A stretch of DNA of 64,000 nt, taken from contig JAAYSZ010000033.1 of assembly GCA_012523895.1 (NCBI GenBank), forward strand, positions 59,389-123,388. The letters run 5' to 3'. The notes under the pieces are model-generated. The model saw only the letters and a program-made list of their open reading frames with translations. It searched no databases and was not told the origin of the DNA. The translations under genes were made by a program, and so were the position numbers. The DNA is from Erysipelotrichaceae bacterium (GTDB lineage Bacteria; Bacillota_I; Bacilli_A; Erysipelotrichales; Erysipelotrichaceae). Every line of letters starts with the position of its first letter. Positions within the stretch are counted from its first letter, which is position 1. Positions 27,112 to 59,234 of the stretch are shown here, in pieces.

Positions 27112-28833
<1,722 letters not shown>

Positions 28834-43690: not shown

Positions 43691-43697
43691 TAACTGT

Positions 43698-43721: not shown

Positions 43722-43739
43722 ATTAAAAAGGGGTATTTA

Positions 43740-44640: not shown

Positions 44641-45551
44641 TATATCAATTAAAACCAATTACTGATATTACTATTTGGGGTGGAAAAATTCTTAATGAAA
44701 TAAGAGGACTTAAAGACACTAAGGGTGGAACATCTTGGGAAATTTCATTTCATCCTTATGGTATAAATGAAGTTATTGGTTTAAATACCAACTTAAAAGA
44801 ATTGTTAGATAAAGATCCTAAAGGCTTAATTGGTGATATTGATAAAGAAGAAGTTTTAAGACTTGCTTATTTAGACGCAGATGAATGGCTTTCTGTTCAA
44901 CTTCATCCAAATAATGATTATGCTTTAAATAATGGATATGATTATGGGAAATTTGAAGCATGGTATATTATTGATGCTAAACCTAATGCTAAGTTAATGG
45001 CGGGAACTACCATTGAATCTAAGGAAGAACTTATAGAAGCTATTGAAAGTGGAAATATAGAAGAAAAGATGATTTATCATCCTGTAAAAAAAGGTGATTT
45101 TATTTATATTCCAGCTAATGCATTACATGCTTTAGGTAAAGATATATTAGCTATTGAAATTAGTACAAATTCTAATACAACTTTTAGAGTGTATGATTAT
45201 AAGCGTAAAGATAAAGATGGTAATTTAAGAGAATTACATTTAAAACAAGTAGTTGATTGTGTTGATTTAAGTCTTTTACCAACTGTTATTTCTAGTGATG
45301 ATAGTGTTAAAAATGAATTGATTCCTTTAACACAAAATGAATATTTTGAAGTTTATCGTGTAAATATAGATGAAAAATTTACTTTAAATAACATTGAAAA
45401 TGATGCTTGGTATGTAACTATATTAAATAAAGGCTTAGAAATTGAGACAATTAAGACAAAATTATCTGAAAATCTATTAGTTAGCGCAAAAATAAATAGT
45501 TTTACAATCAAAGGAAATGGAAGTATACTTTTAAGTAGGACAACAAAATGA
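44637..45551 (+). CDS. class I phosphomannose-isomerase family protein, paralogue 2
   Basis: IWGG, LSVQLHP, KFEAWYII, ALHALGKD. ATG 44637 lies behind AGGGGG and forms an ATGA overlap. Confidence 0.75.
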   Translation: MIYQLKPITDITIWGGKILNEIRGLKDTKGGTSWEISFHPYGINEVIGLNTNLKELLDKDPKGLIGDIDKEEVLRLAYLDADEWLSVQLHPNNDYALNNGYDYGKFEAWYIIDAKPNAKLMAGTTIESKEELIEAIESGNIEEKMIYHPVKKGDFIYIPANALHALGKDILAIEISTNSNTTFRVYDYKRKDKDGNLRELHLKQVVDCVDLSLLPTVISSDDSVKNELIPLTQNEYFEVYRVNIDEKFTLNNIENDAWYVTILNKGLEIETIKTKLSENLLVSAKINSFTIKGNGSILLSRTTK

Positions 45552-46048
45552 AAAATTTATTTAGTAATTTTAATCAGTATTTCTTAGATAAAAGAAACCG
45601 CACAATTTATTATGACTCGAAAAAGAAAGTTGGATATATAGTTCACGAAAAAGATAGGGTTATAGTGAATTTTTTTCATAACCGTTTAACTGCAGGAATA
45701 TTATCAAGTGCTTTATTATTAGCTTATAAAATTAATCCAGTTATTAGTGTAGCTGTTGGTATTCTTGTTTATGTTGGAATGGACTTAATGTTAAAAAAGA
45801 GGTATTTACCTTCTTATACAATGCTTGCTAATTACAATATTGAAAAAGAAAAAGCTTCTATAAAGGAAAATCAAAAAAATCCGATTTGGATTATAGTATT
45901 AAGGCTTGTTCTTTCTATTATATTTTTAGGAGTAGTTTATTATGCTAGAAAAGAACAAGAATCTTATCAAACAATAGCCTTAGGTATTGTTGGTCTTTAT
46001 TTTTTAGTTACAAATATTAAAGAATTGTATACTAGTTATAAAGACTAG
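45548..46048 (+). CDS. hypothetical membrane protein (166 aa, about 4 TM segments)
   Basis: Hydrophobic segments are present. ATGA overlap with the upstream PMI gene. Confidence 0.5.
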   Translation: MKNLFSNFNQYFLDKRNRTIYYDSKKKVGYIVHEKDRVIVNFFHNRLTAGILSSALLLAYKINPVISVAVGILVYVGMDLMLKKRYLPSYTMLANYNIEKEKASIKENQKNPIWIIVLRLVLSIIFLGVVYYARKEQESYQTIALGIVGLYFLVTNIKELYTSYKD

Positions 46049-46064
46049 ATGAGTTAAATAGGGC

Positions 46065-46093
46065 GGAAAAATTCTTGTAAGCCTTTACATTTT
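46065..46093 (+). promoter_or_regulatory. PTS operon promoter overlapped by a cre-like (CcpA) palindrome
   Basis: TTGTAA, a 17-nt spacer, then TATTAT. TGTAAGCCTTTACA (46066-46079) resembles the cre consensus TGWAANCGNTNWCA, with one central mismatch. Confidence 0.5.
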
Positions 46094-46134
46094 ATTGTAT
46101 TATAAAAGTTGAATATGGATAATAGGAGATGGAT

Positions 46135-46569
46135 ATGAGATATTTATTTTTAATTAGCCATGGTGATTTTGCACCTGGACTTCAAAGTGCTGTTGAAATG
46201 ATGGTAGGGGAAAAAGAAGATTTAAAATCTGCATCATTGCGTAACGGCGAATCTACAGTTGATTTTGGAGAAAAATTTAATAAACTTCTTGATCAATTAC
46301 AAGACGATGATGAGCTTATCTTGATGTGTGATATTTTAGGGGGCTCACCGCTAACTACTGCGCTTGCTTGTTTATCAGATTATAACAAGATAGATAAAAC
46401 TTTAGTAATTACTGGTATGAACATGCCTTTAGCTATCACAGCGATGACAATGAAAGATAATATCGATGATATGGAAGCGCTAAAAGATATGCTATTATTT
46501 GAAGGCAAGGAAAGCATTAGCGAATTTAAGATTTCTACAGAAGTTGTAGATGATGACGACGAAATTTAA
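46135..46569 (+). CDS. PTS mannose/fructose/sorbose family EIIA
   Basis: The FLISHGDFAPGL phospho-His motif. I place the start at ATG 46135, 6 nt after AGGAG. Confidence 0.85.
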   Translation: MRYLFLISHGDFAPGLQSAVEMMVGEKEDLKSASLRNGESTVDFGEKFNKLLDQLQDDDELILMCDILGGSPLTTALACLSDYNKIDKTLVITGMNMPLAITAMTMKDNIDDMEALKDMLLFEGKESISEFKISTEVVDDDDEI

Positions 46570-46587
46570 AAAAGGAGAGATAATATT

Positions 46588-47079
46588 ATGATTTCATTTA
46601 TTCGTATTGATGACCGTATGGTTCACGGTCAAGTAATTACGCGTTGGGCAAAGGAAAAACCATGTGATGGTTTAATCATTGTTAATGACCGTGTTGCTAA
46701 AACTCCAGTTCTTAAAAACTCATTTATCAATTCTACAGACAAAAAAGTGTTCATTTGGACAATTGATGAGTTTATTGAGAGACAAGATCGTATTACTGAA
46801 AGTAATCGTAACTACTTTTTAATTACAAAAGATCCAATTGACATGAAAAAACTTCTTGTTGATAAAAAATTTGTACCAAATGATATTAAACATATCATTG
46901 TTGGACCAGCAAATGATCGTCCTGGAACAACTAAACTTGGTGGAAACCAATCAATTACTCAAGATGAAGCTCAAGCAATCGAAGATATGGTAAATGCGGG
47001 CTATGAAGTTGAGTTTGCTTTAGTTCCAGAAACAAGTATTGGTACATGGTCTAAATTTAGGTCTCAATTTGGATTTTAG
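46588..47079 (+). CDS. PTS mannose family EIIB
   Basis: IRIDDRMVHGQV phospho-His motif. Confidence 0.85.
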   Translation: MISFIRIDDRMVHGQVITRWAKEKPCDGLIIVNDRVAKTPVLKNSFINSTDKKVFIWTIDEFIERQDRITESNRNYFLITKDPIDMKKLLVDKKFVPNDIKHIIVGPANDRPGTTKLGGNQSITQDEAQAIEDMVNAGYEVEFALVPETSIGTWSKFRSQFGF

Positions 47080-47134
47080 TGTGGGAAGCTAAAAGACAAT
47101 TTAGATAAAAAAGAGAGATGAAAGGAGATTTAAT

Positions 47135-47971
47135 ATGCAAATTTCTCTAATTGAAGCGATTCTTCTAGGTGTAATGAGTGTACTTGCTGGATCTACTCCT
47201 GCTGCTTTAGGTACAACAGTTGGAAACTACACATTAAACAGACCTTTAATTGGTGGTTTATTTGTTGGACTTATATTAGGAGATGTTCCAGGGGCAATTC
47301 AAATTGCTATTCCTATGCAAGTATTATATATTGCATTAGTTACGCCAGGAGGTACGGTGGCAGCGGACTTACGTGCTGTTTCGTACATAGGCATTCCTTT
47401 AGCCTATGTTGCAGTTAAGGGGGCAGGTCTTGATTTTGGTTCAGAACAAGCTGGAGGACTTGCTGTAAGTATTGCAGCTCTAGTTGGTACAGTTGGAACT
47501 GTTATGTTCTATGGTACTGCTATGATGAACTTATTCTGGCAACACTGGGGATGGGCAGAACTAGAAAAGAACAATTTTAAAGTATTACCTATTGTTGATG
47601 CAGTTCTACCTTTAATTACACACTTTGTAATTTCATTTATCCCTACAGTATTAATGACATACTATGGACAATCTGTTGTTACAGATATTCAACAAGCACT
47701 TCCAATGGATGGGCTTATTATGAAAACAATGTTTACAGTTGGTAACATTTTACCGGCTGTCGGAATTGCTATCCTATTAAAGTCAGTTGTTGACAAAGCA
47801 TCTGATTTAATTCCGTATGCATTTGGATTTGTTATTTCTAAGAGTTTAGGATTAACATTAGTGGCAGCTTCTTTAGTTGCAGCTATCTTTGCTTTATTCC
47901 ATTATAGAATGGAGATGGCTAAACTATCTTCAGGAAGTGGGCACAGTAAATATGACGAGGAGGATATCTAA
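47135..47971 (+). CDS. PTS mannose family EIIC
   Basis: Polytopic protein with a typical EIIC-Man N-terminus, ISLIEAILLG. Confidence 0.85.
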   Translation: MQISLIEAILLGVMSVLAGSTPAALGTTVGNYTLNRPLIGGLFVGLILGDVPGAIQIAIPMQVLYIALVTPGGTVAADLRAVSYIGIPLAYVAVKGAGLDFGSEQAGGLAVSIAALVGTVGTVMFYGTAMMNLFWQHWGWAELEKNNFKVLPIVDAVLPLITHFVISFIPTVLMTYYGQSVVTDIQQALPMDGLIMKTMFTVGNILPAVGIAILLKSVVDKASDLIPYAFGFVISKSLGLTLVAASLVAAIFALFHYRMEMAKLSSGSGHSKYDEEDI

Positions 47972-48816
47972 TGAGTAGTAGAGTAGAAAAGAAAGTATCT
48001 AAAAAAGCATTAAATGCATCCTTCTGGCGCTGGTGGTATGGTAACTTAACTTGCTTTACACACGAACATATGCAAACATTTGGTTACATGTGGTCTTTAT
48101 TCCAAGTAATCGATGATTTATACGAAACAACTGAAGAAAAAGGTGAAAAACTAAGAGCTTATTGGCCGTTCTTCAACACTGAACCACAAATTGGTTGTAT
48201 CGTTGTTGGAATTACAGCTGGGCTTGAAGAAGCACGTGCTAATGGAGATCCAAACGTTGATGATGAAATGATTAACGGTATCCGTGCAGGTCTAATGGGA
48301 CCTCTAGCAGGTATTGGAGACTCATTAATTGTTGGAACTTATATTCCAGTACTATTAGCAGTTGCTTTAGGTCTATCAGAAGGTGGATCTGTTATCGGGG
48401 CATTATTCTATATAGTAGTTTGGAATGCTACATCAATTTATTTCCAATACACTATATTCATGCGTGGATATGAACTTGGTGGTACAGCAGTAGATATTAT
48501 TGTTGGAGATCAAGCTACAGCACTTCGTGGTGCAGTTGTATTACTTGGGCAAATAATTGTAGGGGCAATTAATGGAGCTTGGGTTAATATTACAACACCA
48601 TTAGAATTTAAAAACGCACAAGGCGAAGTATTCTTAAATTTACAAGGTCAGCTTAATGGTATTATGCCAGGGCTACTTTCTATAGGATTTGTTCTTCTAT
48701 GCTGGTGGTTAATGGCTAAGAAGAATATGAAACCATTAACAGTTATGTTATTGATGATTTTGATCGCATTTGTTGGAGTTCTTATCGGATTCTTCGATCC
48801 ACAATTACATTACTAA
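47971..48816 (+). CDS. PTS mannose family EIID
   Basis: The FWRWWYGNLTCFTHEHMQTFGY EIID signature. Confidence 0.85.
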   Translation: MSSRVEKKVSKKALNASFWRWWYGNLTCFTHEHMQTFGYMWSLFQVIDDLYETTEEKGEKLRAYWPFFNTEPQIGCIVVGITAGLEEARANGDPNVDDEMINGIRAGLMGPLAGIGDSLIVGTYIPVLLAVALGLSEGGSVIGALFYIVVWNATSIYFQYTIFMRGYELGGTAVDIIVGDQATALRGAVVLLGQIIVGAINGAWVNITTPLEFKNAQGEVFLNLQGQLNGIMPGLLSIGFVLLCWWLMAKKNMKPLTVMLLMILIAFVGVLIGFFDPQLHY

Positions 48817-48824
48817 TAAAAAGA

Positions 48825-48854
48825 AAAACCCTATACTTCCCACATAGGGTTTTT
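48825..48854 (+). terminator. rho-independent terminator
   Basis: AAAACCCTAT pairs with ATAGGGTTTT. Confidence 0.7.
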
Positions 48855-48871
48855 AATTTAGTGGAGGATAT

Positions 48872-49213
48872 ATGAGTAAGAAGCTAACTAGAAAAGAAAG
48901 AGAACAATTAAAGTTTCAAATTGTTCAAGATAACCAAATGCTCATTAAAATGAGAAATTTTAATCGTGTTTTATTTAGTGTTAGTGCAATGTTAATTATT
49001 TTATCTGTGTTTTTGTATAATGCAGATACTTTTCTTCCTAATTTATTTGGGACAGTATTAAGATGGATATTATATATTGCAACTGTAATTGCATTTATAG
49101 TGAGTATTTTATCGCTTGTATCATTTTTTAATGCAAAGCGAAGAATTAAATATTATATAAATATTTATGATGGGAAAGTTGAACCTCTTCCAAATAAAAA
49201 CACTTCTGAATAA
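48872..49213 (+). CDS. hypothetical small membrane protein (2 TM segments)
   Basis: GGAGGA RBS and two hydrophobic helices. Confidence 0.5.
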   Translation: MSKKLTRKEREQLKFQIVQDNQMLIKMRNFNRVLFSVSAMLIILSVFLYNADTFLPNLFGTVLRWILYIATVIAFIVSILSLVSFFNAKRRIKYYINIYDGKVEPLPNKNTSE

Positions 49214-49230
49214 TAATTGGAAGTGTTTTT
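49199..49230 (+). terminator. rho-independent terminator
   Basis: AACACTTC pairs with GAAGTGTT, followed by TTTGTTT. Confidence 0.5.
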
Positions 49231-49243
49231 GTTTGGAAGTTAT

Positions 49244-50047
49244 TTAACTTTCTTTTTTATATTTGTTTATTGCTAGTTTTGCTTCTTTTTCTGAATATAT
49301 TCCACCAAATAATATATTATCTTTACTTGAATTATCTAAGGTATTATTATCTTTAAAATCAAAGATTTGTGTATCATTTTGTGTATCTTTTAAATGTTTA
49401 TCAAACAGGGTAATTAAACCTGTTTTTTCACAGAACCAAGACAGTTTAAAATAATCAGTTATAAATCTTATATCTTGAATAAGAAGTTTAGCTCCTTCAT
49501 TTGATATTGCAAAATAAGGAAGACCTTGTAATACTTCAAAATTTAATCTTCTTCTAATACCTAATGTATTTAGTATAAAAGCTGTAGCTTTAGAATAATT
49601 TTGTACAAAAGCATTTGTGGAAAATGATTTAAAGTTAGTAAAAGGATAATATCTGTTTATTCTTTTTGGGTCTGGTTTTTCTTTATCTATAATATAAAAG
49701 TTTTGTGGGTAATATTTCTCGAAAAAAGAAATCATTTCTTCATCATTTTTTAATGGAACCATACGTGGATCTAGTGAAATAAAATAATCAATGCGATATT
49801 GTTCAATACCTTTTTTCATCATATGTAGATAAAAATAAGAAAGTGATAAATCACCTATATTAGCATATGGTAAGTCTTGTTCAATATGAATTAATCGACT
49901 CGTAGAAAAATTATAAAAAGCTTCTTGTCGATCTTTATCATCATTGATTATTATAAAAACGGCGTGGTTATTATTTGTAAGTGCACGTATTAATTGAATT
50001 GTTTGTCTTTCAAGTGTGTCTGTTTGAATTAAAAATCCTAATCTCAT
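49244..50047 (-). CDS. GT14 (core-2/I-branching)-like protein, divergent
   Basis: Collinear with the bacterial 'Branch' domain pattern (LI....E....LI.AL......FIIH.D; DYFISL..R..PLK..EE...F). Several conserved positions are altered. Confidence 0.4.
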   Translation of the reverse strand: MRLGFLIQTDTLERQTIQLIRALTNNNHAVFIIINDDKDRQEAFYNFSTSRLIHIEQDLPYANIGDLSLSYFYLHMMKKGIEQYRIDYFISLDPRMVPLKNDEEMISFFEKYYPQNFYIIDKEKPDPKRINRYYPFTNFKSFSTNAFVQNYSKATAFILNTLGIRRRLNFEVLQGLPYFAISNEGAKLLIQDIRFITDYFKLSWFCEKTGLITLFDKHLKDTQNDTQIFDFKDNNTLDNSSKDNILFGGIYSEKEAKLAINKYKKES

Positions 50048-50087
50048 ATTAAAAACCTCTAATAAAGTATAACATAAAAATAATTAT

Positions 50088-50123
50088 CAAAAATTATCAA
50101 AAATAAGCAAAATCTTTCAAAAA
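50088..50123. repeat. four helically phased A-tracts upstream of the GRE promoter
   Basis: CAAAA(A) starts at 50088, 50098, 50108 and 50118, an exact 10-bp period. Confidence 0.7.
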
Positions 50124-50137
50124 TCTTCATTAAATCC

Positions 50138-50166
50138 TTGTATGTATATGTTAAAAAAGCTATAAT
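50138..50166 (+). promoter_or_regulatory. GRE operon promoter
   Basis: TTGTAT, a 17-nt spacer, then TATAAT. An AGAAGGA RBS precedes ATG 50191. Confidence 0.6.
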
Positions 50167-50190
50167 TTTTTATAAGAGAAGGATAATGAT

Positions 50191-52572
50191 ATGCAATTAC
50201 TAGAAATGAAAATTGACAATATTGATACTATTGATTTTAAAAGAATTGATAGATTAAGGAAGATAATGCAAAATCGAAAGGCTAGCTTATGTAGTGAAAG
50301 AGCTAAAATATATACTGAAGTTTTTAAAGAAACTGAAGAAGAACCTATGATTTTAAGAAAAGCTAAAGGTTTAAGTAAAACATTAAATGATATGTCTATT
50401 TATCATTTAGATGATTCTCTAATTTTTGGAAATCAAGCTAGTAGAAATTTTGCGGCTCCAATTTTTCCTGAATATTCTATAAAGTGGTTACTTGATGAGG
50501 TAGATAGCTTTGAATATCGTGATGGTGATGTATTTAATGTTTCTGATGAAGTAAAGAAAGATTTAAGAGAAATTGGGAAATATTGGATTAATAAAACACA
50601 TGAAGATAATGTAAATAATAATATTCCTCAAATTAATCTTTTGGCTGAAAAACAAAAGGTACTTCATAGAGGAGGAATTTCAAATTCTGGAGATGGTCAT
50701 ATTGTAAGTGACCATAAATGGTTATTAGAAATTGGCTATTCTGGAATGGTTGATTTAATTAATGAAAAATTAAAAAATCCTGATTTATCAGATAATCAAA
50801 TTAATTTTTATAATGCTTCAAAAATGACACTTATTGCTGGATTAAATTATGCAAAAAGATTTGCGAATTACTTTAAAGAAAAAGCAAAATTAAATAATGA
50901 TAAAAAATTATATTATTTAAGTGAAATAGCTAATAAGGTTCTTGATGGACCATGTGAGTCTTTTCATGAGGCATTACAAGCTATTTATTTAAATCATGTA
51001 TTTTTAATGATTGAAAGTAATGGTCACTCATTTTGTTATGGTCGTATTGATCAATACTTATATCCTTATTATCAAAACGATATTAAAAAAGGTGTATTAA
51101 CTAAAGCTAAAGCACTTGAGCTGATTACTCATTTCTTTATAATGAATAATTCACTTAACAAGATTCGTAGTAATGGTCATACACTTTTTTCACAAGGTTA
51201 TCCACTTTATACAAATGTAATGGTTGGAGGCTTATTACCTAGTGGAGAAGATGGTACTAATGATTTAACTTATTTAAGTGTTGAAGCTATGGGTTTATGT
51301 AGACTTAATGAGCCTAATTTTTCTATGCGTTATCATAAAGAGTCACCTAAAGAAATATTATCTCTTGCGTCTAAATTAATTCGTACAGGTTGTGGTATGC
51401 CTTCAATGTTTAATGATGCTACTTGTATTAAAGGGTTAATTGATTTAGGGATTGATAAAGAAGATGCATATGATTATGTTGCTATTGGGTGTGTTGAAAC
51501 AGGAGTACAAGGAAAATATGGTCATAGAGCTACTGGAATGACTTATATGAATTGGGGTAAGATTTTAGAAATTGTTTTAAATAGAGGTTTTGATCCTAAT
51601 ACAAATATAAGATTATTTAAACTATCTAAAGAACCTAAATCATATGAAGAATTATGGAATGATTGGAAGAAAGCTCTGGCATTTTATTCAGAATTATCTT
51701 TTGAAAGTGATAGAGTTTGTGATAGGTCTTTAGAAATTTATGATTCTAGTCCTTTGGGTTCAATTTTCATTCACAATTCTTTAGAGTTAGGAAAAACTTT
51801 AAAGGAAGGTGGTTGTGAATATGATGTTGTTTCACAATCCAATATAGGAAGTTCAGTTGTTGGAAACTCTTTAATGGTATTAAAGAAATTAGTTTTTGAA
51901 GATAAAAAATATACTTATTCTCAAATAATGGAAGCTTTAAAAAATAATTGGCAAGATGAAGAAATTCATAAAGCTTGTTTAGAAGTAGAAAAATTTGGGA
52001 ATAATAGTGATCAAGTTGACTTAATAGTAAAGGATGTTTTTGATTCATATCTTGAATTACTTGATGGAGTAAAAACTATAAGATATAACAGAGGTCCAAA
52101 GATTTCAAAATATACTATGTCAACTAGTAATATTACTTCTTATATTCCTAATGGTAAAAATGTTGGTGCAACTCCAGATGGAAGAAAAGCTCAAAGTCCT
52201 CTTAATGAAGGGTGTTCACCAACTCAAAATACAGTAAGTAAAGGTCTTACTGCATTAATAAATTCAGTATCAGTATTACCAAATGAAAAAGTTGCAGCAG
52301 GTCAATTATTAAATACTAGAATTTCTTATCAATTACTTAATAATGAAGAAAAGATAGATAAGTTTATCAGTTTTTTAAGAGTAAGTGCTAAAAAAGGAAT
52401 TTATCATAATCAGTTTAATGTTGTAAGTAACAAAGTTTTAAAAGATGCTCAAATACATCCTGAAAATCATAGAGATTTAATAGTAAGAGTTGCAGGCTAT
52501 TGTGCACAGTTTGTAGCTTTAACACCAGAAGCTCAAGAAGCAATAATTCAAAGAAATGAGTATGGCGCATGA
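50191..52572 (+). CDS. glycyl radical enzyme, PFL2/1,2-eliminase (dehydratase/lyase) class, substrate unknown
   Basis: C-terminal glycyl fingerprint IVRVAGYCAQF (Gly769). The thiyl loop AIGCVETG (Cys434, Glu436) is the GCVE motif of the diol-dehydratase/CutC/HypD/IslA-type enzymes, not the CC loop of PFL. Confidence 0.85.
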   Translation: MQLLEMKIDNIDTIDFKRIDRLRKIMQNRKASLCSERAKIYTEVFKETEEEPMILRKAKGLSKTLNDMSIYHLDDSLIFGNQASRNFAAPIFPEYSIKWLLDEVDSFEYRDGDVFNVSDEVKKDLREIGKYWINKTHEDNVNNNIPQINLLAEKQKVLHRGGISNSGDGHIVSDHKWLLEIGYSGMVDLINEKLKNPDLSDNQINFYNASKMTLIAGLNYAKRFANYFKEKAKLNNDKKLYYLSEIANKVLDGPCESFHEALQAIYLNHVFLMIESNGHSFCYGRIDQYLYPYYQNDIKKGVLTKAKALELITHFFIMNNSLNKIRSNGHTLFSQGYPLYTNVMVGGLLPSGEDGTNDLTYLSVEAMGLCRLNEPNFSMRYHKESPKEILSLASKLIRTGCGMPSMFNDATCIKGLIDLGIDKEDAYDYVAIGCVETGVQGKYGHRATGMTYMNWGKILEIVLNRGFDPNTNIRLFKLSKEPKSYEELWNDWKKALAFYSELSFESDRVCDRSLEIYDSSPLGSIFIHNSLELGKTLKEGGCEYDVVSQSNIGSSVVGNSLMVLKKLVFEDKKYTYSQIMEALKNNWQDEEIHKACLEVEKFGNNSDQVDLIVKDVFDSYLELLDGVKTIRYNRGPKISKYTMSTSNITSYIPNGKNVGATPDGRKAQSPLNEGCSPTQNTVSKGLTALINSVSVLPNEKVAAGQLLNTRISYQLLNNEEKIDKFISFLRVSAKKGIYHNQFNVVSNKVLKDAQIHPENHRDLIVRVAGYCAQFVALTPEAQEAIIQRNEYGA

Positions 52573-53339
52573 AGAAGGGATTAATATCAAAAGTACAGCG
52601 ATACAGTATTAATGATGGACCAGGTATTAGAAGCACTGTATTTTTAAAGGGCTGTAATTTAAATTGTATGTGGTGTTCTAATCCTGAATTGATTGATTTT
52701 AGCCAATCATATTTAGATGGAAAACCTGTAGGAGAATTAATAAGTGTTAAAGATGTTGTAAAAGAAGTTATAAGAGATATTGATTTTTATAAAGAATCTT
52801 TAGGAGGAGTAACTTTTTCTGGAGGTGAACCTTTATTACAAAGTGATTTTTTACTTGAATGTATTAAATTATTAAAAGATTATTCAATCCATATTGCAAT
52901 AGACACTGCACTTTATGTTGATAAAAAAATCATTAAAAAATTATTGCCTTATGTTGATTTATGGTTAGTTGATTTAAAGAGTATAGATGATATAACGCAT
53001 ATTAAAACTACTAATGTTTCAAATAAAATTATTTTGGATAATATTAAATTTCTCTATAAAAATAATGTGAATATGTGGATTAGATGTATTTTAGTTAATA
53101 AAGAAAATTATGATTTAGATGAATTAAAAAAACGTTTAAATTTTATTGAAAGTATTAAAAAATGTGTAAAGCGTGTTGATATATTAGGGTATCATCAGTT
53201 AGGAGTTAGTAAATATCAAAAGTTAAATAAAGAATATTTATTAACTAATGAAGCTTTATTAAGTGATATACAAGAAAAAGAAGTTGAAGAATTAATTAAA
53301 GAATATGTATTACCAATATATTTTGAAAGGGGGATTTGA
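52569..53339 (+). CDS. glycyl-radical enzyme activating protein (short, PflA-like form)
   Basis: CNLNCMWCSNPE (CX3CX2C) and GGVTFSGGEPLL. There is no Cys-rich ferredoxin insert between these motifs. Confidence 0.85.
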   Translation: MKKGLISKVQRYSINDGPGIRSTVFLKGCNLNCMWCSNPELIDFSQSYLDGKPVGELISVKDVVKEVIRDIDFYKESLGGVTFSGGEPLLQSDFLLECIKLLKDYSIHIAIDTALYVDKKIIKKLLPYVDLWLVDLKSIDDITHIKTTNVSNKIILDNIKFLYKNNVNMWIRCILVNKENYDLDELKKRLNFIESIKKCVKRVDILGYHQLGVSKYQKLNKEYLLTNEALLSDIQEKEVEELIKEYVLPIYFERGI

Positions 53340-54094
53340 TGTTACAGAATGATAGATATGATTTTATCCTTAATTTATTAAAACAAAATAAATCTATACA
53401 GGTTAAAGAAATTGCAAGTTTATTAAATATTTCTGAATCAACAATTCGTAGAGATTTAATCAATCTTGAAAAAGAAGGTAAATTAAATAGAGTTCATGGT
53501 GGGGCAATTTTAGGTGAAGGAATGACTATCTATAATCAAAGTAAAGAAATCAAAATTTCAGATAGAACCCTTGTAAATATAGATATTAAATTAAAGATTG
53601 CTCAAGAAGTCAGTAAAAATATTCAAGATGGACAATGTATTTTTATAGATGGTGGATCATCTCTTGCTCCTTTAGCTGATTTATTAGCTCATAGAGATAT
53701 AAATATTGTTACTAATAGTATTTTGTTTTTACAAAGATTAGAAAATTCTTTCGCAAATGTTTATTGTTTAGGAGGAGATTATTTAGATAAATATCAAATG
53801 ACAATGGGACCTATTGCGACTGCTCAACTTTCAACTTTTAATTTTGATGCGGCTTATATATCTTGTGCAGGAGTATCATTTGAAAATAATATGGGGTATA
53901 CAGCTGAAATAGGTACAAATGTAATAAAACAACAAGCTAAAAGGCAAGCATTGCACTCTTATCTAATAATTGATGATTCAAAAATTGAAATGATTGGTTT
54001 TTGTACAATTGATAAGTTAGATGCTTTTGACAAGATTTATTGTAATAAGATTGATGATATAGAAAATGCCCCAGAAAACATGGTATGGGTTTAA
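53336..54094 (+). CDS. DeoR/GlpR-family transcriptional regulator
   Basis: N-terminal HTH VKEIASLLNISESTIRRDLINLEKEGKLNRVHGGA plus a DeoR C-terminal sensor domain. Confidence 0.85.
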   Translation: MMLQNDRYDFILNLLKQNKSIQVKEIASLLNISESTIRRDLINLEKEGKLNRVHGGAILGEGMTIYNQSKEIKISDRTLVNIDIKLKIAQEVSKNIQDGQCIFIDGGSSLAPLADLLAHRDINIVTNSILFLQRLENSFANVYCLGGDYLDKYQMTMGPIATAQLSTFNFDAAYISCAGVSFENNMGYTAEIGTNVIKQQAKRQALHSYLIIDDSKIEMIGFCTIDKLDAFDKIYCNKIDDIENAPENMVWV

Positions 54095-54108
54095 TTGGAG
54101 ATAAGTAT

Positions 54109-54924
54109 ATGAAAGATATTAAATTTGTGATATTTGATGTTGATGGAACTTTAATTACAAAATCAAGTAGAATTTTATTAGATTCAACAATTGATGCAAT
54201 ACATCAATTACAGAATAAAGGTATAAAAGTAGCGATTGCGACAGGAAGGGCAATGTATGCATTAGAAAAATCAATTATTGATAGAGTTCATTTTGATTAT
54301 TATGTTTGTTCTAATGGAACTTTTATTTATGATAATGATGATAAGAAGATTGTATATAAACGTATTGTTCTTAATGAAACTATTAATGAATATACTAATT
54401 TATGTGATAAGACTAATTCAGAAGTTTTATTTCAATTTGAAGATGCAGGATATATTTATTCTGGAAATGGAAAACTTAAAAAAATAATTACTAAGTATTT
54501 AGGAATTAATGATTTTATTATTAACCATCCTGAAAGAAATCATCATTTAAAAAATGAAGCTAGTGCAATAGTATCTTATATTGATGAAAATCATCTAGAA
54601 ACATTTAAAGATTCTTTTTTAGATTATGATTTTGTACCATTTGCGCAAGATTATTATGATTTAAATCCAAAATCAATAAATAAGGCTACAGGTATATTTA
54701 AGATATGTGATTATTTAAATATAGATTATAGTCAAACTATGGCATTTGGTGATGCAAATAATGATTATGAAATGATTGAAGAAGCAGGAATTGGTATTGC
54801 GATGGGAAATGCACTTGATAATATAAAAGAAATTGCTAAATATATTACTGAAGATACAGAACATCATGGAGTTCATAATGCTTTAGTTCATTTTGGTTTA
54901 ATAGAAGGTGAAAAATATGTATGA
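54109..54924 (+). CDS. Cof-type HAD-IIB phosphatase
   Basis: FDVDGTL, ATGR, and GDANNDYEM. I place the start at ATG 54109, 8 nt after GGAG and downstream of the deoR stop. Confidence 0.8.
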   Translation: MKDIKFVIFDVDGTLITKSSRILLDSTIDAIHQLQNKGIKVAIATGRAMYALEKSIIDRVHFDYYVCSNGTFIYDNDDKKIVYKRIVLNETINEYTNLCDKTNSEVLFQFEDAGYIYSGNGKLKKIITKYLGINDFIINHPERNHHLKNEASAIVSYIDENHLETFKDSFLDYDFVPFAQDYYDLNPKSINKATGIFKICDYLNIDYSQTMAFGDANNDYEMIEEAGIGIAMGNALDNIKEIAKYITEDTEHHGVHNALVHFGLIEGEKYV

Positions 54925-56584
54925 TAAATTTCCTACTACAAAGATTTCATCAGATTCATCTAAGGTTTATAAAGATTTATCCATTTTTAAGGATGAGTCT
55001 TTAGTAATTGTTGAAACATTTCCAGGAGTCAGTGATGATGTTTTAGAGTCTTTTAAATCTTTAGGATTTAATAAAGTAATTAATACTATTGACTTATTTA
55101 TTTCAGAAGAAGAAATGAATAAGTGGTTAAAACCTATACTTACAAAAGATAGAGTTAGAGGTCGTAAGTTTTTTGGTGAAATTATTGATTTTATGGATGA
55201 AGATAAAATTGAAGAAGCTAAAAAAGATATTGTTAATTCTAATAAAGTTCTTGTATATGGGTTTGGGGCTAGTTTATTAAGTCATGAAGGGGTTTTGGTT
55301 TTTGTAGATGTTCCTAGATGGGAAATTCAAATGAGATATAGAAAAGGAATGCCAAATTTTAATGCTTCAAATTATGATGAAGATAATTTAAAGAAAATTA
55401 AAAGAGGTTATTTCTTTGAGTGGCCAATGGCTAATAAATTAAAGAAAAAAGTGTTTAGAAAGATGGACTATTATTTTGATAATGCAATTAAAAATAATAT
55501 TAATATGATTAGTTCAACAGATTATTTTAAGGGGTTAAAAATAATCGCAAATCAACCATTTAGATTAGTTCCATTCTTTGATCCAGGTGTTTGGGGAGGA
55601 CAGTGGATGAAAGAAGAATTTAATTTAGAAGAAAATAATTCTAATTATGCATGGTCATTTGATGGAGTTCCTGAAGAAAATTCAATTAATTTAGGATTTG
55701 GAAAATACGTTATAGAAACTCCTGTAATAAATTTAGTTTTAGCTTATCCTTTAGATTTATTAGGTAGATTTGTATATCAAAGATATGGCGCAGAGTTTCC
55801 AATAAGATTTGACTATTTAGATACTGTTAAAGGTCAAAATTTATCTTTACAAGTTCATCCTCCAGTGGAGTTAATTCAGCGTGAATTTGGTATGGCATAT
55901 ACACAATCTGAATCATATTATTTAATGCAGTCATTTGAAGGAGGGGTTGTTTATTTAGGAGTTAAAAATGATGTTGATAAAAAAGAAATGTTTGATGATT
56001 TAAGAAAAGCTCAGGAAGGAAAGATTATTTTTGATGCTGAAAAATATGTAAATGTATTTCCTTCTAAAAAACATGATCATTATTTAATTCCACCTGGAAC
56101 AATTCATTGTTCTGGATCTAATACAGTTGTTTTAGAGATATCTACAACTCCTAATATATTCACATTTAAATTGTGGGATTGGGGAAGGTTAGGATTAGAT
56201 GGTTTACCTAGACCTACTCATATAGATTTAGGTGAAGAAGCAATAAATATGGATAATAATACAGATTTTGTAAATAAATATTTAGTTAATCAAAGTAAAA
56301 TAATTTTAGATGATGGAGAAAATTTAGTAGAAGAAACAGGTTTAACTGATGATCAGCATTTAGTTACAACTAGAATTCATGTGAAAAAATCATTAACTTT
56401 AAATAATAATGAAGTAGTTTCAATGATGAATTTAGTAGAAGGAGATTCTTGTGTAATTAAAACAGATAAGATAGATTATGAGATTCATTATGGTGAAACA
56501 TTTATAGTTCCAGCTTCTGTAGATTTATTTACGATTGAATCAAAAGAAGCAGTTATATTAATGAGAGCACAGGTTAGAAAGTAG
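54917..56584 (+). CDS. long-form class I phosphomannose-isomerase-like protein (about 555 aa, with an extra ~200-aa N-terminal domain), paralogue 3
   Basis: VWGGQW, LSLQVHP, SESYYLM, and GTIHCSGSN supply the Zn ligands. ATG 54917 lies 6 nt after GAAGGTG. Confidence 0.65.
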   Translation: MYDKFPTTKISSDSSKVYKDLSIFKDESLVIVETFPGVSDDVLESFKSLGFNKVINTIDLFISEEEMNKWLKPILTKDRVRGRKFFGEIIDFMDEDKIEEAKKDIVNSNKVLVYGFGASLLSHEGVLVFVDVPRWEIQMRYRKGMPNFNASNYDEDNLKKIKRGYFFEWPMANKLKKKVFRKMDYYFDNAIKNNINMISSTDYFKGLKIIANQPFRLVPFFDPGVWGGQWMKEEFNLEENNSNYAWSFDGVPEENSINLGFGKYVIETPVINLVLAYPLDLLGRFVYQRYGAEFPIRFDYLDTVKGQNLSLQVHPPVELIQREFGMAYTQSESYYLMQSFEGGVVYLGVKNDVDKKEMFDDLRKAQEGKIIFDAEKYVNVFPSKKHDHYLIPPGTIHCSGSNTVVLEISTTPNIFTFKLWDWGRLGLDGLPRPTHIDLGEEAINMDNNTDFVNKYLVNQSKIILDDGENLVEETGLTDDQHLVTTRIHVKKSLTLNNNEVVSMMNLVEGDSCVIKTDKIDYEIHYGETFIVPASVDLFTIESKEAVILMRAQVRK

Positions 56585-56592
56585 GTATAAAA

Positions 56593-57219
56593 ATGAAATT
56601 ACAAATTGCATTGGACACATTGACTTTAAAAGAATGTATAGAGCTTTTAGATGAAACAAAGGATTACATTGATATTGTAGAAGTAGGAACACCTTTTATT
56701 ATTGAAAAAGGTATGAAGCCTGTTAAGAAATTTTCAAAACGTTATAAAGACCTTGAAATTTTAGCTGATACTAAAATTATGGATGCAGGAGAACTTGAAG
56801 CTGAAATAGCATTTAAAGCAGGTGCTGATATAGTAACTGTTTTAGGTGTTACTCATGATGAAACAGTACAAGGAGCATTAAAGGCTGCTAAAAAATATGG
56901 TGGTAAAATCATGATTGATATGATTGGTGTTAATAATATTGAAGAAAGAGCTAAAGAACTTGAAGATATGGGTGTTGATTATATTTGTGTTCACACAGCA
57001 TTTGACATTCAATCAACAGGTCATAATCCATTAGAAGAGTTAAAAAGAGTTAATAAAGTTATTACAAAATCAAAGACTGCAGTTGCTGGTGGTGTAAAGC
57101 TTGAAACTGTTGATGAGATTGTATCAGAAGGTGTAGATGTAGTTGTGGTAGGTGGAGCTATTAGTAATGCATCAGATCGTGTTTTAGCCGCAAAACAAAT
57201 TAAGGAGAGATTAAAATGA
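56593..57219 (+). CDS. hxlA: 3-hexulose-6-phosphate synthase / 3-keto-L-gulonate-6-P decarboxylase family (OMPDC suprafamily)
   Basis: MKLQIALDTLTL...IVEVGTPFI...LADTKIMDAG. 208 aa. Confidence 0.7.
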   Translation: MKLQIALDTLTLKECIELLDETKDYIDIVEVGTPFIIEKGMKPVKKFSKRYKDLEILADTKIMDAGELEAEIAFKAGADIVTVLGVTHDETVQGALKAAKKYGGKIMIDMIGVNNIEERAKELEDMGVDYICVHTAFDIQSTGHNPLEELKRVNKVITKSKTAVAGGVKLETVDEIVSEGVDVVVVGGAISNASDRVLAAKQIKERLK

Positions 57220-57770
57220 AGGATTTAGTTAAAACTATAATTAATGAACTTGATACAACATTAAATTCAATTAATGAAAAAGATGCAGATGCATTTGTAA
57301 AATTGGTAGATGAAGCTAATGAAGTGTTTTGTGCTGGTGCAGGGCGTAGTGGTTTTCAAGTTAAGGGTTTTGCGATGAGATTAATGCATATGGGTGTTAA
57401 TAGTTATGTTGTTGGTGAAACATGTACTCCTAATATTACAGATGAAGGTTTATTAGTAATATGTAGTGGTTCAGGAGAAACAAAATCTTTAGTTAATCAT
57501 GCGACTAAAGCAAAAGAAGTTGGTGCTAAGATTGCATTAATTACTATTAATCCACAATCTACTATAGGAAAAATGGCTGATGTAGTAGTTGAAATATCTG
57601 CACCATCACCAAAAAGTGCTAAAGAAGGTCAGATTAAATCAATTCAACCAATGGGATCTTTATTTGAACAATCAGAAGGATTGTTTATGGATATTGCAAT
57701 TTTAAAATTAATGGAAATTAAAAACATGACTTCTGAAACAATGTTTGGTCGTCATGCGAATATGGAATAA
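57216..57770 (+). CDS. hxlB: 6-phospho-3-hexuloisomerase-like SIS-domain protein
   Basis: SIS motif GAGRSGF...SGSGET. 184 aa. Overlaps hxlA. Confidence 0.7.
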   Translation: MKDLVKTIINELDTTLNSINEKDADAFVKLVDEANEVFCAGAGRSGFQVKGFAMRLMHMGVNSYVVGETCTPNITDEGLLVICSGSGETKSLVNHATKAKEVGAKIALITINPQSTIGKMADVVVEISAPSPKSAKEGQIKSIQPMGSLFEQSEGLFMDIAILKLMEIKNMTSETMFGRHANME

Positions 57771-57782
57771 GGAGGTAATATA

Positions 57783-58496
57783 ATGACTAAAAAGAAAGCT
57801 ATTGATATGTCAGTATCAGAACTAGCAAAGTACATCGACTATTCAGTGTTGAAGCCTGAATTTACCGAGGAAGAAATAGTTGAGTTAACTAAGGATGGAG
57901 TTAAATTAGGATGTGCAACTATTTGTATTAATCCTGCTTATATGGATTTATGTTATCCATATGTTAAGGATAGTGAAACAAAACTATGTCCAGTAGTTGA
58001 TTTCCCATTTGGTACAAGTTCTACAAGATCTAAAGTTGAACAAGTTAAAATACTTACTGAATATGATCATGTTGGTGAAATTGATATGGTTTTAAATTAT
58101 GGATGGGTTAAATCAGGCAAGTATGATGAAGTTACTAAAGATGTAAAAGCTGTAGCTGATGTTTGTCATGAATCAAATATACCTATTAAGGTAATATTTG
58201 AAACAGATGCATTAACATTTGAAGAAATTGAAAAGACAATTGAATGTTGTATAGAAGCAGGTGCTGATTTTATTAAGACAGCGACAGGTTTTTATACAGG
58301 AACTTGTTTACATGGCGATAAAAGAGGTGGCTTTAGAGAGATGATTAGCTTTATGATAGAAAAAGCTGATGGAAGATGTAAAGTTAAAGCTTCTGGCGCT
58401 ATTAGAGATAGACAACACTTTTTAGATTTAATTGATATGGGTGTTGATCGTATGGGTATTGGATATAGATCTGTACCTGTGGTATTAGATTTATAA
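57783..58496 (+). CDS. deoC: deoxyribose-phosphate aldolase family class I aldolase
   Basis: IDMVLNYG and FIKTATGF (Schiff-base Lys). Confidence 0.75.
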   Translation: MTKKKAIDMSVSELAKYIDYSVLKPEFTEEEIVELTKDGVKLGCATICINPAYMDLCYPYVKDSETKLCPVVDFPFGTSSTRSKVEQVKILTEYDHVGEIDMVLNYGWVKSGKYDEVTKDVKAVADVCHESNIPIKVIFETDALTFEEIEKTIECCIEAGADFIKTATGFYTGTCLHGDKRGGFREMISFMIEKADGRCKVKASGAIRDRQHFLDLIDMGVDRMGIGYRSVPVVLDL

Positions 58497-58514: not shown

Positions 58515-59234
58515 ATGAAAATAATTATTTCTCCTACAAAAAAGATGGTAATTGATAATGATAGTTTTAAACATAAATCATTACCATTTTTTATTGAAGA
58601 GTCAAAAACAATAAAAGAAAAGCTTTTAACCTTTAATAAAAAAGAACTTAAGTCTCTTTGGAAATGTAGTGATAAGTTATTAGAAGAAAACTATGAAAGA
58701 TTAATTAATATGGATTTATATTCTAATTTAACTTGTGCAATTATGTCTTATAGAGGATTACAATTTCAATATATGGCACCTTCTTTATTTACTAAGGAAC
58801 AATTAGAATATGTAGATAAACATTTAATTATATTATCTGGATTTTATGGAGCTTTAAAACCTTTTGATGGAGTTACTCCTTATAGATTAGAAATGCAAAG
58901 TAGATTAAGTATTAATGATAATAAAGATCTTTATGAATTTTGGAGTGAAAAGATTACAAAAAAATTAGAAGCAGACTTAATAATTAATCTTGCTTCTAAT
59001 GAATATAGTAAAGTAATAAATTTAAATAAAATAAATATTATTTTTGGTGAACTTATTAATGATAAGGTTGTTGAAAAGGGAACTCTATGTAAGATGGCAA
59101 GAGGTGAAATGGTTAGATACATGGCTGAAAATAATATAAAAGATGTTGATAGTATTAAAAACTTTGATAGGTTAGGTTATAAATATAATAAAGAATTTTC
59201 AGATGAAAATAACATTGTATTTATTAAAGATTAA
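58515..59234 (+). CDS. yaaA: YaaA-family peroxide stress protein (UPF0246)
   Basis: MKIIISPTKKM, AIMSYRGLQFQ, and RGEMVRY. Confidence 0.8.
   Translation: MKIIISPTKKMVIDNDSFKHKSLPFFIEESKTIKEKLLTFNKKELKSLWKCSDKLLEENYERLINMDLYSNLTCAIMSYRGLQFQYMAPSLFTKEQLEYVDKHLIILSGFYGALKPFDGVTPYRLEMQSRLSINDNKDLYEFWSEKITKKLEADLIINLASNEYSKVINLNKINIIFGELINDKVVEKGTLCKMARGEMVRYMAENNIKDVDSIKNFDRLGYKYNKEFSDENNIVFIKD

Follow-up and report, generated by a model that had tools for sequence, protein, structure and literature searches.

A DeoC-linked clade of glycyl radical enzymes and a candidate PTS-fed radical route for sugar phosphates in an Erysipelotrichaceae operon

What reaction would an oxygen-sensitive glycyl radical enzyme (GRE) catalyse when its gene heads an operon of sugar-phosphate enzymes? 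The question is raised by a 64,000-nucleotide stretch of the genome of a gut-type Erysipelotrichaceae anaerobe (positions 59,389 to 123,388 of contig JAAYSZ010000033.1; hereafter the window), in which such an operon follows a mannose (Man)-family phosphotransferase system (PTS). The original prediction, made from the DNA alone, had proposed radical C-O cleavage of a phosphosugar within a pathway formed by the whole operon. We retain the radical C-O cleavage of a phosphosugar, for which an aldolase and a PTS are co-conserved with the GRE, and give up the operon-wide eight-enzyme pathway. The reading that we favour, with slightly less than even confidence, is a PTS-fed catabolic route of two enzymes, in which the GRE would cleave a C-O bond and the aldolase DeoC would split the product. 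In our view the locus is a lead with good support that can be tested directly, and not yet proof of a new pathway.

The glycyl radical enzyme and its relatives

The genes of the operon and of the PTS are listed here by window coordinates, with the supporting match or feature in brackets.

50191-52572, forward strand: GRE, 793 aa (Cys434, Glu436, Gly769)
52569-53339, forward strand: AE, the GRE-activating radical-SAM enzyme (TIGR02494)
53336-54094, forward strand: DeoR-family regulator (Pfam HTH_DeoR and DeoRC)
54085-54924, forward strand, probable start 54109: Cof-type HAD-IIB sugar-phosphate phosphatase (TIGR00099)
54908-56584, forward strand, probable start 54917: long isomerase resembling phosphomannose isomerase (PMI), 555 aa
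56593-57219, forward strand: HxlA, 3-hexulose-6-phosphate synthase (HPS) (TIGR03128)
57216-57770, forward strand: HxlB, 6-phospho-3-hexuloisomerase (PHI) (TIGR03127)
57783-58496, forward strand: DeoC, class I aldolase of the deoxyribose-5-phosphate aldolase (DERA) family (TIGR00126)
46129-46569, 46588-47079, 47135-47971 and 47971-48816, forward strand: Man-family PTS components IIA, IIB, IIC and IID (Pfam and NCBIfam)

Pfam and NCBIfam upheld the domain assignments in the operon, with matches below threshold for the PMI-like protein, and the junctions between its eight genes range from overlaps of 4-17 nt to a gap of 12 nt. The open reading frames (ORFs), Pfam and NCBIfam thus bear out the tight packing and the domains given in the original prediction, together with both GRE fingerprints, RVAGY with Gly769 and a thiyl loop GCVE with Cys434/Glu436. 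The PTS, which had been placed 1.4 kb upstream, ends 1.37 kb before the GRE start. An independent JGI metagenome contig (locus L018) is collinear with 45791-55113 at 98.5% identity, so that this portion of the locus is not an assembly artefact.

The GRE matches Pfam families PF02901 (4e-168) and PF01228 (5e-25). It matches no NCBIfam equivalog, the best hit being the PFL2-3 subfamily with 657 bits against a cut-off of 678. In an alignment of 50 non-redundant relatives G769, C434 and E436 are invariant. The active-site motif is CXE, a single Cys followed by Glu, and not the Cys-Cys pair of the pyruvate formate-lyase (PFL) type. The enzyme is therefore a member of the CXE eliminase/isomerase class of the PFL-like glycyl radical superfamily. 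An AlphaFold2 model (pLDDT 88.7, pTM 0.92) superposes on all eliminase GREs at TM 0.89-0.94, and since all of them score in this range the fold confirms the class and not the function.

In the PDB the highest-scoring sequence matches are to YbiW and to 6xs4, its orthologue from Enterobacter (about 496-499 bits), followed by glycerol dehydratase (GD; 444 bits), propanediol dehydratase (PD; 410 bits) and then PflD, CutC and the hydroxyproline enzymes. By BLASTP the GRE is 36% identical to YbiW, 34% to GD and 30% to PflD, references that are themselves mutually 37-41% identical, which argues for an independent lineage; within its own clade identity is 57-68%. Judged by these identities, the enzyme is not an orthologue of any characterised GRE. 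In a neighbour-joining tree holding three characterised reference sequences (YbiW, GD and PflD), the DeoC-linked GREs are monophyletic. Their sister is a subclade without DeoC (loci L093-L097); YbiW branches next, and GD and PflD fall outside. The window GRE thus lies in a separate clade with YbiW as an outgroup and clusters tightly with no characterised enzyme. YbiW is its nearest characterised relative by sequence and by tree, in keeping with the analogy to YbiW and PflD drawn earlier.

A protein search returned thousands of GRE relatives. Among the best 120 listed, one match stands at 99% identity and all others fall within 57-68%; named sources include Absicoccus, Floccifex and Holdemanella (Erysipelotrichaceae), Lacrimispora, Alkalibaculum, Klebsiella huaxiensis, Propionispora and Pelosinus. 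In a metagenome scan, 278 stretches matched the GRE, many of them from human-gut assemblies. A full-text literature search on glycyl radical enzymes found no paper characterising the DeoC-linked clade.

We then compared pocket residues. Positions were transferred from GD by alignment only, with no ligand contacts computed, using the GD residue identities of 1R9D. They are given in the order GD, DeoC-linked clade, YbiW, PflD.

Asn156; Gly162; Gly; Asn
His164; His170; His; His
His281; His279; His; Ser
Ser282; Ser280; Ser; Ser
Tyr339; Tyr340; Tyr; Gly
Cys433; Cys434; Cys; Cys
Glu435; Glu436; Glu; Glu
Asp447; Ala447; Cys; Asp
Tyr640; Ser646; Ser; Tyr

The clade agrees with YbiW at eight of the nine positions; at the ninth the Asp of GD is missing from both, being replaced by Ala in the clade and by Cys in YbiW. 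Eight positions are invariant across the 50 relatives, and Ala447 is found in 49 of them. A pocket of the GD/PD type (Asp447, Asn156, Tyr640) does not occur in the clade, which has Ala447, Gly162 and Ser646 instead. Two basic residues, Arg446 and Lys538, are also invariant in the clade and are common only to YbiW (Arg453, Lys550), the equivalents being His and Gln in GD and His and Thr in PflD. They are plausible candidates for phosphate ligands; the original prediction had called for such residues to be sought by modelling, and it was alignment that brought them out. The YbiW-type pocket and the Arg446/Lys538 pair together support a phosphorylated, YbiW-like substrate.

Other residues set the clade apart. 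Compared with YbiW and the sister clade, clade-specific substitutions flank the mapped pocket residues (Cys282, Phe377, Gly438, Tyr443, Trp455, Cys675 and Ala703). Four extra cysteines (Cys282, Cys542, Cys675 and Cys771) are invariant among the 50 aligned sequences of the DeoC-linked clade. YbiW, GD and PflD differ at all four, with Ser at 282 and 771 and Ala, Val or Leu at 675; in the sister clade, positions 282 and 675 are Ser and Ala.

Sugar-phosphate-cleaving GREs were recognised only in 2024, with YbiW and PflD (reviewed in June 2026, PMC13450708). YbiW is a 1,5-anhydroglucitol-6-phosphate C-O lyase and PflD a 1,5-anhydromannitol-6-phosphate C-O lyase; both yield 1-deoxy-fructose-6-phosphate, which Fsa cleaves (PMC13450708). 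YbiW works with YbiY, YbiV and FsaA in a pathway termed 'anhydroglycolysis' (Ma et al. 2024, as cited in PMC13450708). Our searches of this review for deoxyribose, hexulose and ribitol gave nothing, and YbiW and PflD were the only sugar-phosphate GREs that we found in it; HpyG (8ID1) and HpzG (8IOF), which are further PDB matches of the window GRE, have assigned functions there (PMC13450708).

The window system resembles that of YbiW in its CXE GRE, dedicated activase, Cof/HAD neighbour, presumed PTS-delivered substrate and class I aldolase as the next enzyme. It differs in that the partner aldolase is of the DERA type and not Fsa, the accessory enzymes are true transaldolase and transketolase or HPS and PHI, the activase lacks a ferredoxin-like domain, and the GRE, at 36% identity, has substitutions of its own, extra cysteines among them, in the stretches next to the mapped pocket residues. 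PflD shares the overall fold and the chemistry class, and its E. coli genes adjoin those of a PTS and of Fsa, but it is only 30% identical and retains the GD-like Asn, Asp and Tyr where the clade has Gly, Ala and Ser. GD (1r8w) and PD (5i2g) superpose at TM 0.92-0.93, and GD residues His164, His281, Ser282, Tyr339, Cys433 and Glu435 are conserved; the chemistry too would be alike, a GD-type 1,2-dehydration, if the substrate were an open-chain polyol phosphate. In contrast to these dehydratases, the window GRE (34% identical to GD) has Asp447, Asn156 and Tyr640 replaced and Arg446 and Lys538 added, and no microcompartment or aldehyde dehydrogenase gene was seen among the surrounding ORFs scanned.

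Partners that recur beside the enzyme

Annotated neighbourhoods, a genome scan and a metagenome scan (80 kept of 278 confirmed stretches) together gave 96 loci, which are labelled L and a number and which fell into 46 clusters at 90% GRE identity. Neighbours were counted by seeded tblastn. As many contigs are short, the following counts are lower bounds.

Activase: 29 of 46 clusters
DeoC: 26 of 46 clusters, about 25 of them at ≥50% identity, usually as the adjacent gene
DeoR: 21 of 46 clusters
Man-PTS IIA-IID: 9 of 46 clusters, with IIC 47-78% and IID 52-75% identical
Transaldolase (TAL)/Fsa: 8 of 46 clusters
HAD: 6 of 46 clusters
Transketolase (TKT): 5 of 46 clusters
HxlA/HxlB: 4 of 46 clusters (window, L001, L003 and L080)
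DUF218: 4 of 46 clusters

Unbiased clustering of 593 neighbour ORFs and a Pfam census of 124 residual ORFs revealed no further recurrent neighbour; in particular, neither turned up microcompartment, aldehyde dehydrogenase or sulfite-handling genes, and the substrate could not be read from a kinase, dehydrogenase or glycosidase gene among the 124 residual ORFs, as none was found. In both the seeded and the unbiased counts the neighbours listed above are the only recurrent ones. The functional core therefore consists of GRE, AE, DeoC and DeoR, fed by a Man-type PTS. The gene set of the original prediction is therefore conserved in part: AE, DeoC, DeoR and Man-PTS recur, and the exact combination is not kept, with HxlAB in 4 of 46 clusters and the long PMI-like gene in the window only.

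Adjacency of DeoC and GRE spans two phyla or more and several families, with examples from Klebsiella, Pelosinus, Lacrimispora, Alkalibaculum and Erysipelotrichaceae, the GRE-adjacent orthologues being 50-65% identical. Among the genera with a PTS orthologue next to the GRE are Klebsiella, Lacrimispora and Alkalibaculum, and the Pelosinus locus adjoins a glucitol-type PTS instead. In the window the Man-PTS has four components, including the family-specific IID, with all matches below any equivalog cut-off.

The window DeoC scores 167 bits against TIGR00126 (equivalog cut-off 117), and its best PDB matches are all DERAs. The DERA residues Lys167, Lys201, Lys137 and Asp102 (E. coli numbering) are kept in 24 GRE-linked DeoCs, which, unlike canonical DERA, have a short insertion following the Schiff-base Lys and a G-x-G-Y-x-S motif at the C-terminus. 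By sequence DeoC is a DERA-type class I aldolase, with deoxyribose-5-phosphate or a longer 2-deoxy sugar phosphate as its predicted substrate. For its chemistry DERA requires a carbonyl compound, aldehyde or ketone, whose alpha carbon is an unsubstituted CH2, and radical 1,2-elimination yields such a group.

DeoCs of the same clade (64-72% identity) also occur without a GRE, in C. innocuum and, standing alone, in Lawsonibacter. We had considered a GRE-specific DeoC subfamily and dropped it when a reciprocal test found these members. The C. innocuum locus (L102, 3847-8732) has a Gat-family PTS, a split transketolase and a same-clade DeoC (68%), with no dehydrogenase or GRE in the 8-kb flanks. 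It may be a locus for direct use of a 2-deoxy sugar, and its combination of DeoC, PTS and split transketolase is consistent with an aldolase product that needs transketolase.

Which aldolase accompanies the GRE depends on the clade. Fsa carries the signature Gln59/Ala129/Tyr131, and transaldolase has Glu/Ser/Phe. The 217-aa TAL/FSA genes found beside transketolase in DeoC-type loci (L008, L010 and L014) carry the transaldolase signature. Genes with the Fsa signature (Gln/Ala/Tyr) were found beside the GRE in the sister-clade locus L097 (GRE 52% identical, no DeoC), once in Pelosinus, where both this gene and DeoC stand beside the GRE, and in L098; there is no Fsa gene in the window. Because the DeoC-less L097 has Fsa, like ybiW-fsaA in E. 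coli, the partner aldolase switches from Fsa to DERA at the boundary of the GRE clade. With a different aldolase and different accessory enzymes, the product of the clade is likely to differ from that of YbiW, and its substrate probably differs too.

The AE gene overlaps the GRE stop codon, and its product scores 248 bits against TIGR02494 (cut-off 174) in two stretches, with profile positions ~40-100 absent. It is a short form of 256 aa with the motif C29x3C33x2C36 and without the ferredoxin-like auxiliary-cluster insert; orthologues are 34-54% identical. So far as is known, activases of characterised eliminase-class GREs have a ferredoxin-like insert with two auxiliary [4Fe-4S] clusters. Short activases (256-259 aa) are encoded at 52569-53339 in the window, at 7741-8511 in L010 and at 8364-9143 in L011, and in L008 and L014, from the same GRE clade, the activases have about 300 aa and Fer4 domains.

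Downstream of the regulator, the Cof-HAD protein scores 163 bits against TIGR00099 (cut-off 137) and is 25% identical to E. coli YbiV, whose gene adjoins ybiW. HxlA (TIGR03128, 275 bits against an equivalog cut-off of 200) and HxlB (TIGR03127, 240 bits against 160) are, like DeoC, bona fide members of their families, and the '-like' formerly attached to the three can be dropped. They resemble the ribulose monophosphate (RuMP) enzymes (hxlAB of B. subtilis and the archaeal reverse RuMP pathway) in passing these cut-offs. Unlike these, they belong to a GRE/PTS operon with PMI-like and HAD genes and not to an HxlR formaldehyde regulon, and the direction of flux and the role that we propose for them below are conjectural.

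Three of the four clusters with HxlA/HxlB come from related, Erysipelotrichaceae-like metagenome-assembled genomes (MAGs; L001, L003 and L080), where the pair lies 7 kb from the GRE behind a corrinoid methyltransferase cluster. This corrinoid system (L001 3016-9258, also in L003 and L080) is placed between DeoR-HxlA-HxlB and DeoC-GRE. Its L001 version encodes a pair of URO-D/MtaA-like proteins along with CobW, DUF1638, a protein that binds B12 and a RACo activase. Among the 46 clusters only the window has the long PMI-like gene beside this GRE.

The same block of genes exists elsewhere without the GRE. In L098, which comes from a close relative, the order is DeoR-Fsa-HAD-PMI-like-PMI-HxlA-HxlB, with neither this GRE nor DeoC, and the block adjoins a different Man-PTS and a GFO/IDH/MocA oxidoreductase. 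Identities to the window proteins are 64% for DeoR, 74% for HxlA, 80% for HxlB, 59% for the PMI-like protein and 50% for HAD. The window operon is thus a fusion of a GRE-AE(-DeoR)-DeoC core with a separable HAD-PMI-like-HxlAB module. Because HxlAB occurs in 4 of 46 clusters and the block exists without the GRE in L098, HPS and PHI are accessory and not core steps after the GRE. We also rejected a direct action of HPS/PHI on the GRE product: the retro-aldol reaction of HPS is not open to a 1-deoxy-3-hexulose, and co-conservation of HxlAB is lacking.

The long PMI-like protein scores below threshold both in Pfam (25.4 bits, gathering 27) and against TIGR00218 (39.6 bits, cut-off 116). In its AlphaFold2 model (pLDDT 89.7) the C-terminal 340 residues match B. 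subtilis PMI 1qwr by Foldseek at TM 0.86 (target-normalised), and the metal ligands Q312, H314, E332 and H397 are invariant, in the cupin pattern of type I phosphomannose isomerases. The N-terminal alpha/beta domain of about 210 aa found no match. The family (about 555-580 aa) is large and unnamed, and is often paired, with translational coupling, with a cupin-type glucose-6-phosphate isomerase (GPI; L099 7354-9725, and L100). A cupin-type GPI (PF06560) also follows the PTS in L013 (18443-19042).

A second GRE ('GRE2', about 27-28% identical), with its own activase, lies directly downstream of GRE/AE in Erysipelotrichaceae MAGs (L001 13433-16625, also L002, L003 and L005). A GRE2 copy that is 45% related occurs in L098 (11783-14005) beside NanE and DeoR, on the strand opposite to the Fsa-HAD-PMI-like-HxlAB operon.

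A candidate route and its alternatives

What is shown is which genes are present, which catalytic residues they encode, that the pocket resembles that of YbiW, and that GRE, AE, DeoC, DeoR and PTS are conserved together. From this we infer a substrate class, a 2-deoxy product, an erythrose-4-phosphate co-product and roles for HxlAB and the PMI-like protein. The Man-family PTS would import and phosphorylate a reduced hexose analogue, for which an anhydro-hexitol or a hexitol are candidates. Once activated by AE, the GRE would use the Cys434 thiyl together with Glu436 to abstract a hydrogen next to a hydroxyl, as in YbiW, and would expel a beta C-O leaving group, either the ring oxygen or a hydroxyl. 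Elimination would start from a HO-CH2-CH(X)- terminus, where X could stand for the ring oxygen if the substrate is a 2,5-anhydro-hexitol and for a hydroxyl if it is an alditol phosphate, and the product would be a 2-deoxy-aldose phosphate with a CH2 beside the carbonyl.

DeoC would then split the 2-deoxy-aldose phosphate into acetaldehyde and an aldose phosphate, most likely erythrose-4-phosphate from a hexose-sized substrate and glyceraldehyde-3-phosphate (G3P) from a pentose-sized one. The recurrent true transaldolase, transketolase and RpiB argue against a glycolytic triose as co-product. The products first envisaged, G3P and a small carbonyl compound, are possible, but the recurrent transaldolase and transketolase point to erythrose-4-phosphate and acetaldehyde. 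In other lineages these two enzymes would return the aldose phosphate to glycolysis. In the window lineage, PHI and HPS running in reverse (fructose-6-phosphate to ribulose-5-phosphate) and isomerases of the PMI/phosphoglucose isomerase type would supply ribulose-5-phosphate/xylulose-5-phosphate as ketol donor; this is the weakest step of the proposal. DeoR would sense a phosphosugar of the pathway, and the Cof phosphatase would drain a toxic phosphosugar, possibly as a safety valve. In its fully specified form, with a PTS-delivered hexitol-6-phosphate or anhydro-hexitol-6-phosphate turned into 2-deoxy-hexose-6-phosphate, a DERA-family aldolase yielding acetaldehyde and erythrose-4-phosphate, and a reverse RuMP module replacing transaldolase in the window lineage, the scheme is doubtful. 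Its radical step would be a reaction without description so far, with three variants conceivable: a hexitol phosphate could lose water by 1,2-dehydration, the ring of a 2,5-anhydro-hexitol could be opened, or 1,5-anhydroglucitol-6-phosphate could be opened regiodivergently.

This scheme resembles DERA pathways, including the sugar-phosphate-utilising microcompartment (PMC11585597), in the catalytic residues and in the predicted products, acetaldehyde and an aldose phosphate. It differs in that the proposed substrate would be made by radical chemistry from a PTS sugar and not from deoxynucleosides, in the lack of shell proteins among the ORFs scanned, and in the G-x-G-Y-x-S motif at the C-terminus of the window DeoC, which replaces G-T-S-S.

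Several observations weigh against the route we favour. In many loci neither PTS nor TAL nor TKT turns up within 10 kb. The reaction of YbiW itself would explain the shared first-shell residues equally well; DeoC may be the ordinary deoxyribose-5-phosphate aldolase of these bacteria, and the HAD-PMI-like-HxlAB block may be functionally unrelated to the GRE. A reverse HxlAB would release formaldehyde, which is awkward. Sorbitol-6-phosphate, mannitol-1-phosphate or 2,5-anhydromannitol-6-phosphate would be expected to give 2-deoxy-D-arabino-hexose-6-phosphate, and the canonical stereochemistry of DERA (3S) does not match this product.

The GRE might instead be isofunctional with YbiW/PflD and convert 1,5-anhydroglucitol-6-phosphate, 1,5-anhydromannitol-6-phosphate or an epimer into 1-deoxy-ketohexose-6-phosphate, which DeoC, replacing Fsa, would split into hydroxyacetone and G3P. 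The shared first-shell residues, Arg446/Lys538 and the sister position of YbiW in the tree fit such an enzyme, and so do the HAD neighbour, paralleling ybiV-ybiW in E. coli, PTS uptake as in the E. coli pathway (PMC13450708), and the Pelosinus locus with an Fsa-signature gene and DeoC beside the GRE. Yet the identity to YbiW (36%) falls well outside the 57-68% seen within the clade, the clade boundary is exactly where DERA takes the place of Fsa, substitutions specific to the clade flank the mapped pocket residues, and the recurrent true transaldolase and transketolase are left unexplained. DERA donors carry no alpha-hydroxyl and hydroxyacetone is not known to serve as one, which counts against this reading. 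We consider it unlikely, though a serious competitor. The extra cysteines, present where relatives have Ser or Ala, could be taken as signs of a reductive deoxygenase resembling ribonucleotide reductase. It would turn a pentose-5-phosphate or hexose-6-phosphate supplied by the accessory enzymes directly into a 2-deoxy sugar phosphate via formate or a thiol pair, with DeoC splitting the product, and would serve as a fermentative electron sink. Deoxyribose-5-phosphate is the canonical DERA substrate, and the accessory modules (HxlAB, TAL/TKT/RpiB) all interconvert hexose and pentose phosphates. But the fold and the CXE motif are those of eliminases/isomerases and not of NrdD, and no formate-handling or redoxin gene recurs among the neighbours, so that we give this idea very little weight.

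Release of formaldehyde or acetaldehyde by the GRE, with trapping by HPS and DERA, was the other hypothesis of the original prediction. HxlA and HxlB are genuine HPS and PHI in the same operon, and three MAG clusters that are related have them no more than 8 kb from the GRE, but they are missing from 42 of 46 clusters, and their block occurs without this GRE in L098. The GRE has the residues of an eliminase/isomerase, not of a C-C lyase, and lacks the PFL-type Cys-Cys pair; HPS is not a conserved partner; and DERA acting on free acetaldehyde also needs G3P, which leaves no net catabolic logic. We abandon this hypothesis as the least probable of those weighed here. A coincidental adjacency, with the GRE acting on a non-sugar small molecule (a diol, an amine or a sulfonate) in a mosaic operon, would agree with the separable HAD-PMI-like-HxlAB block and with loci L015, L063 and L065, which have no informative neighbours. 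It is made highly improbable by the adjacency of DeoC across at least two phyla, the co-conserved orthologous PTS, the YbiW-type basic residues and the lack of microcompartment, aldehyde dehydrogenase and sulfite-handling genes among the neighbour ORFs analysed. The residual probability belongs to reactions outside the options listed.

The two-enzyme route is of a known kind, in which a sugar phosphate delivered by a PTS is opened or dehydrated by a GRE before a class I aldolase acts; new are an abundant uncharacterised clade and its other aldolase and accessory enzymes. Identification of the substrate would add an anaerobic route for a dietary or host-derived reduced sugar, and would tell what a large set of genes does that carry the annotation 'formate C-acetyltransferase' or 'glycyl radical protein'. 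DERA could possibly gain a new physiological substrate. If the fully specified scheme is true, gut anaerobes would have a second, widespread branch of 'radical glycolysis'.

Surroundings of the operon

The remaining features around the operon are as follows.

40955-41959, forward strand: PMI (Pfam and NCBIfam), followed by a methyltransferase gene
42992-43690, forward strand: NanE (Pfam and NCBIfam)
43710-44312, forward strand: cupin-type GPI (Pfam and NCBIfam)
44619-45551, forward strand: PMI-like protein (Pfam and NCBIfam)
48872-49213, forward strand: small membrane protein of 113 aa after IID (ORF list)
49244-50047, reverse strand: GT14/Branch-like protein, putatively cytoplasmic, divergent from the GRE operon (Pfam PF02485, 26.7 bits)
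50048-50190, forward strand: divergent intergenic region with a candidate promoter, Shine-Dalgarno sequence and tandem repeat (sequence reading)
58515-59234, forward strand: YaaA-family protein (Pfam and NCBIfam)

The eight genes are as the original prediction gave them, with probably slightly later starts for the HAD and PMI-like genes, and the operon probably extends further than it supposed. A ninth co-directional gene, yaaA, begins 18 nt past deoC with no terminator predicted between them, and the two are probably co-transcribed. Among the 46 locus clusters yaaA stands beside the GRE in the window only, and it is not a conserved partner.

The operon had been credited with one strong promoter. 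The best candidate is TTGTAT-17-TATAAT at 50138-50166, with the Shine-Dalgarno sequence AGAAGGA before the GRE; sigma-70-like sites number 110 in the AT-rich window DNA against 113 expected from shuffled sequence, which gives no support to the claim of a strong promoter. The promoter region of the GRE gene also has a tandem AATTATCAAAAA repeat with 10-nt spacing (50079-50108), a possible operator for DeoR. On comparison of the promoter regions, no counterpart of the repeat was recognised upstream of the L098 operon.

Between the PTS operon and the divergent GT14-like gene lies a bidirectional terminator-like hairpin with a 20-bp stem (49190-49236). The 113-aa membrane protein has a counterpart in the same position in L011 (30% identity). 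Homologues of the GT14/Branch-like protein (40-43% identity) are found at the same place in L011 (3330-4214) and L098 (4427-5260), so that in three related loci, counting the window, this gene sits between the Man-PTS and a DeoR-controlled operon. The protein may be part of the same sugar pathway.

Upstream of the PTS the window has the cupin GPI, two ordinary PMI-like genes and NanE, and these hexose-phosphate genes (40955-45551) may belong to the same regulon. We considered 44290-45551 as a frameshifted copy of the long PMI-like gene and rejected this, as it matches ordinary PMI and not the long form. No shell-protein or aldehyde/alcohol dehydrogenase genes were found among the window ORFs scanned, which were not all of its ORFs; within that scope the original prediction was right on this point.

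Further away, a T-box leader (27114-27322; Rfam RF00230, 117.5 bits) directly precedes a class II aminoacyl-tRNA synthetase gene (27340-28833) and fits a Bacillota host. The region 8280-21529 is a block of minus-strand genes with higher GC and reversed GC skew. It contains a FecCD/periplasmic-binding-protein ABC transporter and a histidine-phosphatase-family (His_Phos_1) gene, followed by a molybdopterin enzyme of the xanthine dehydrogenase family and an Fe-S oxidoreductase.

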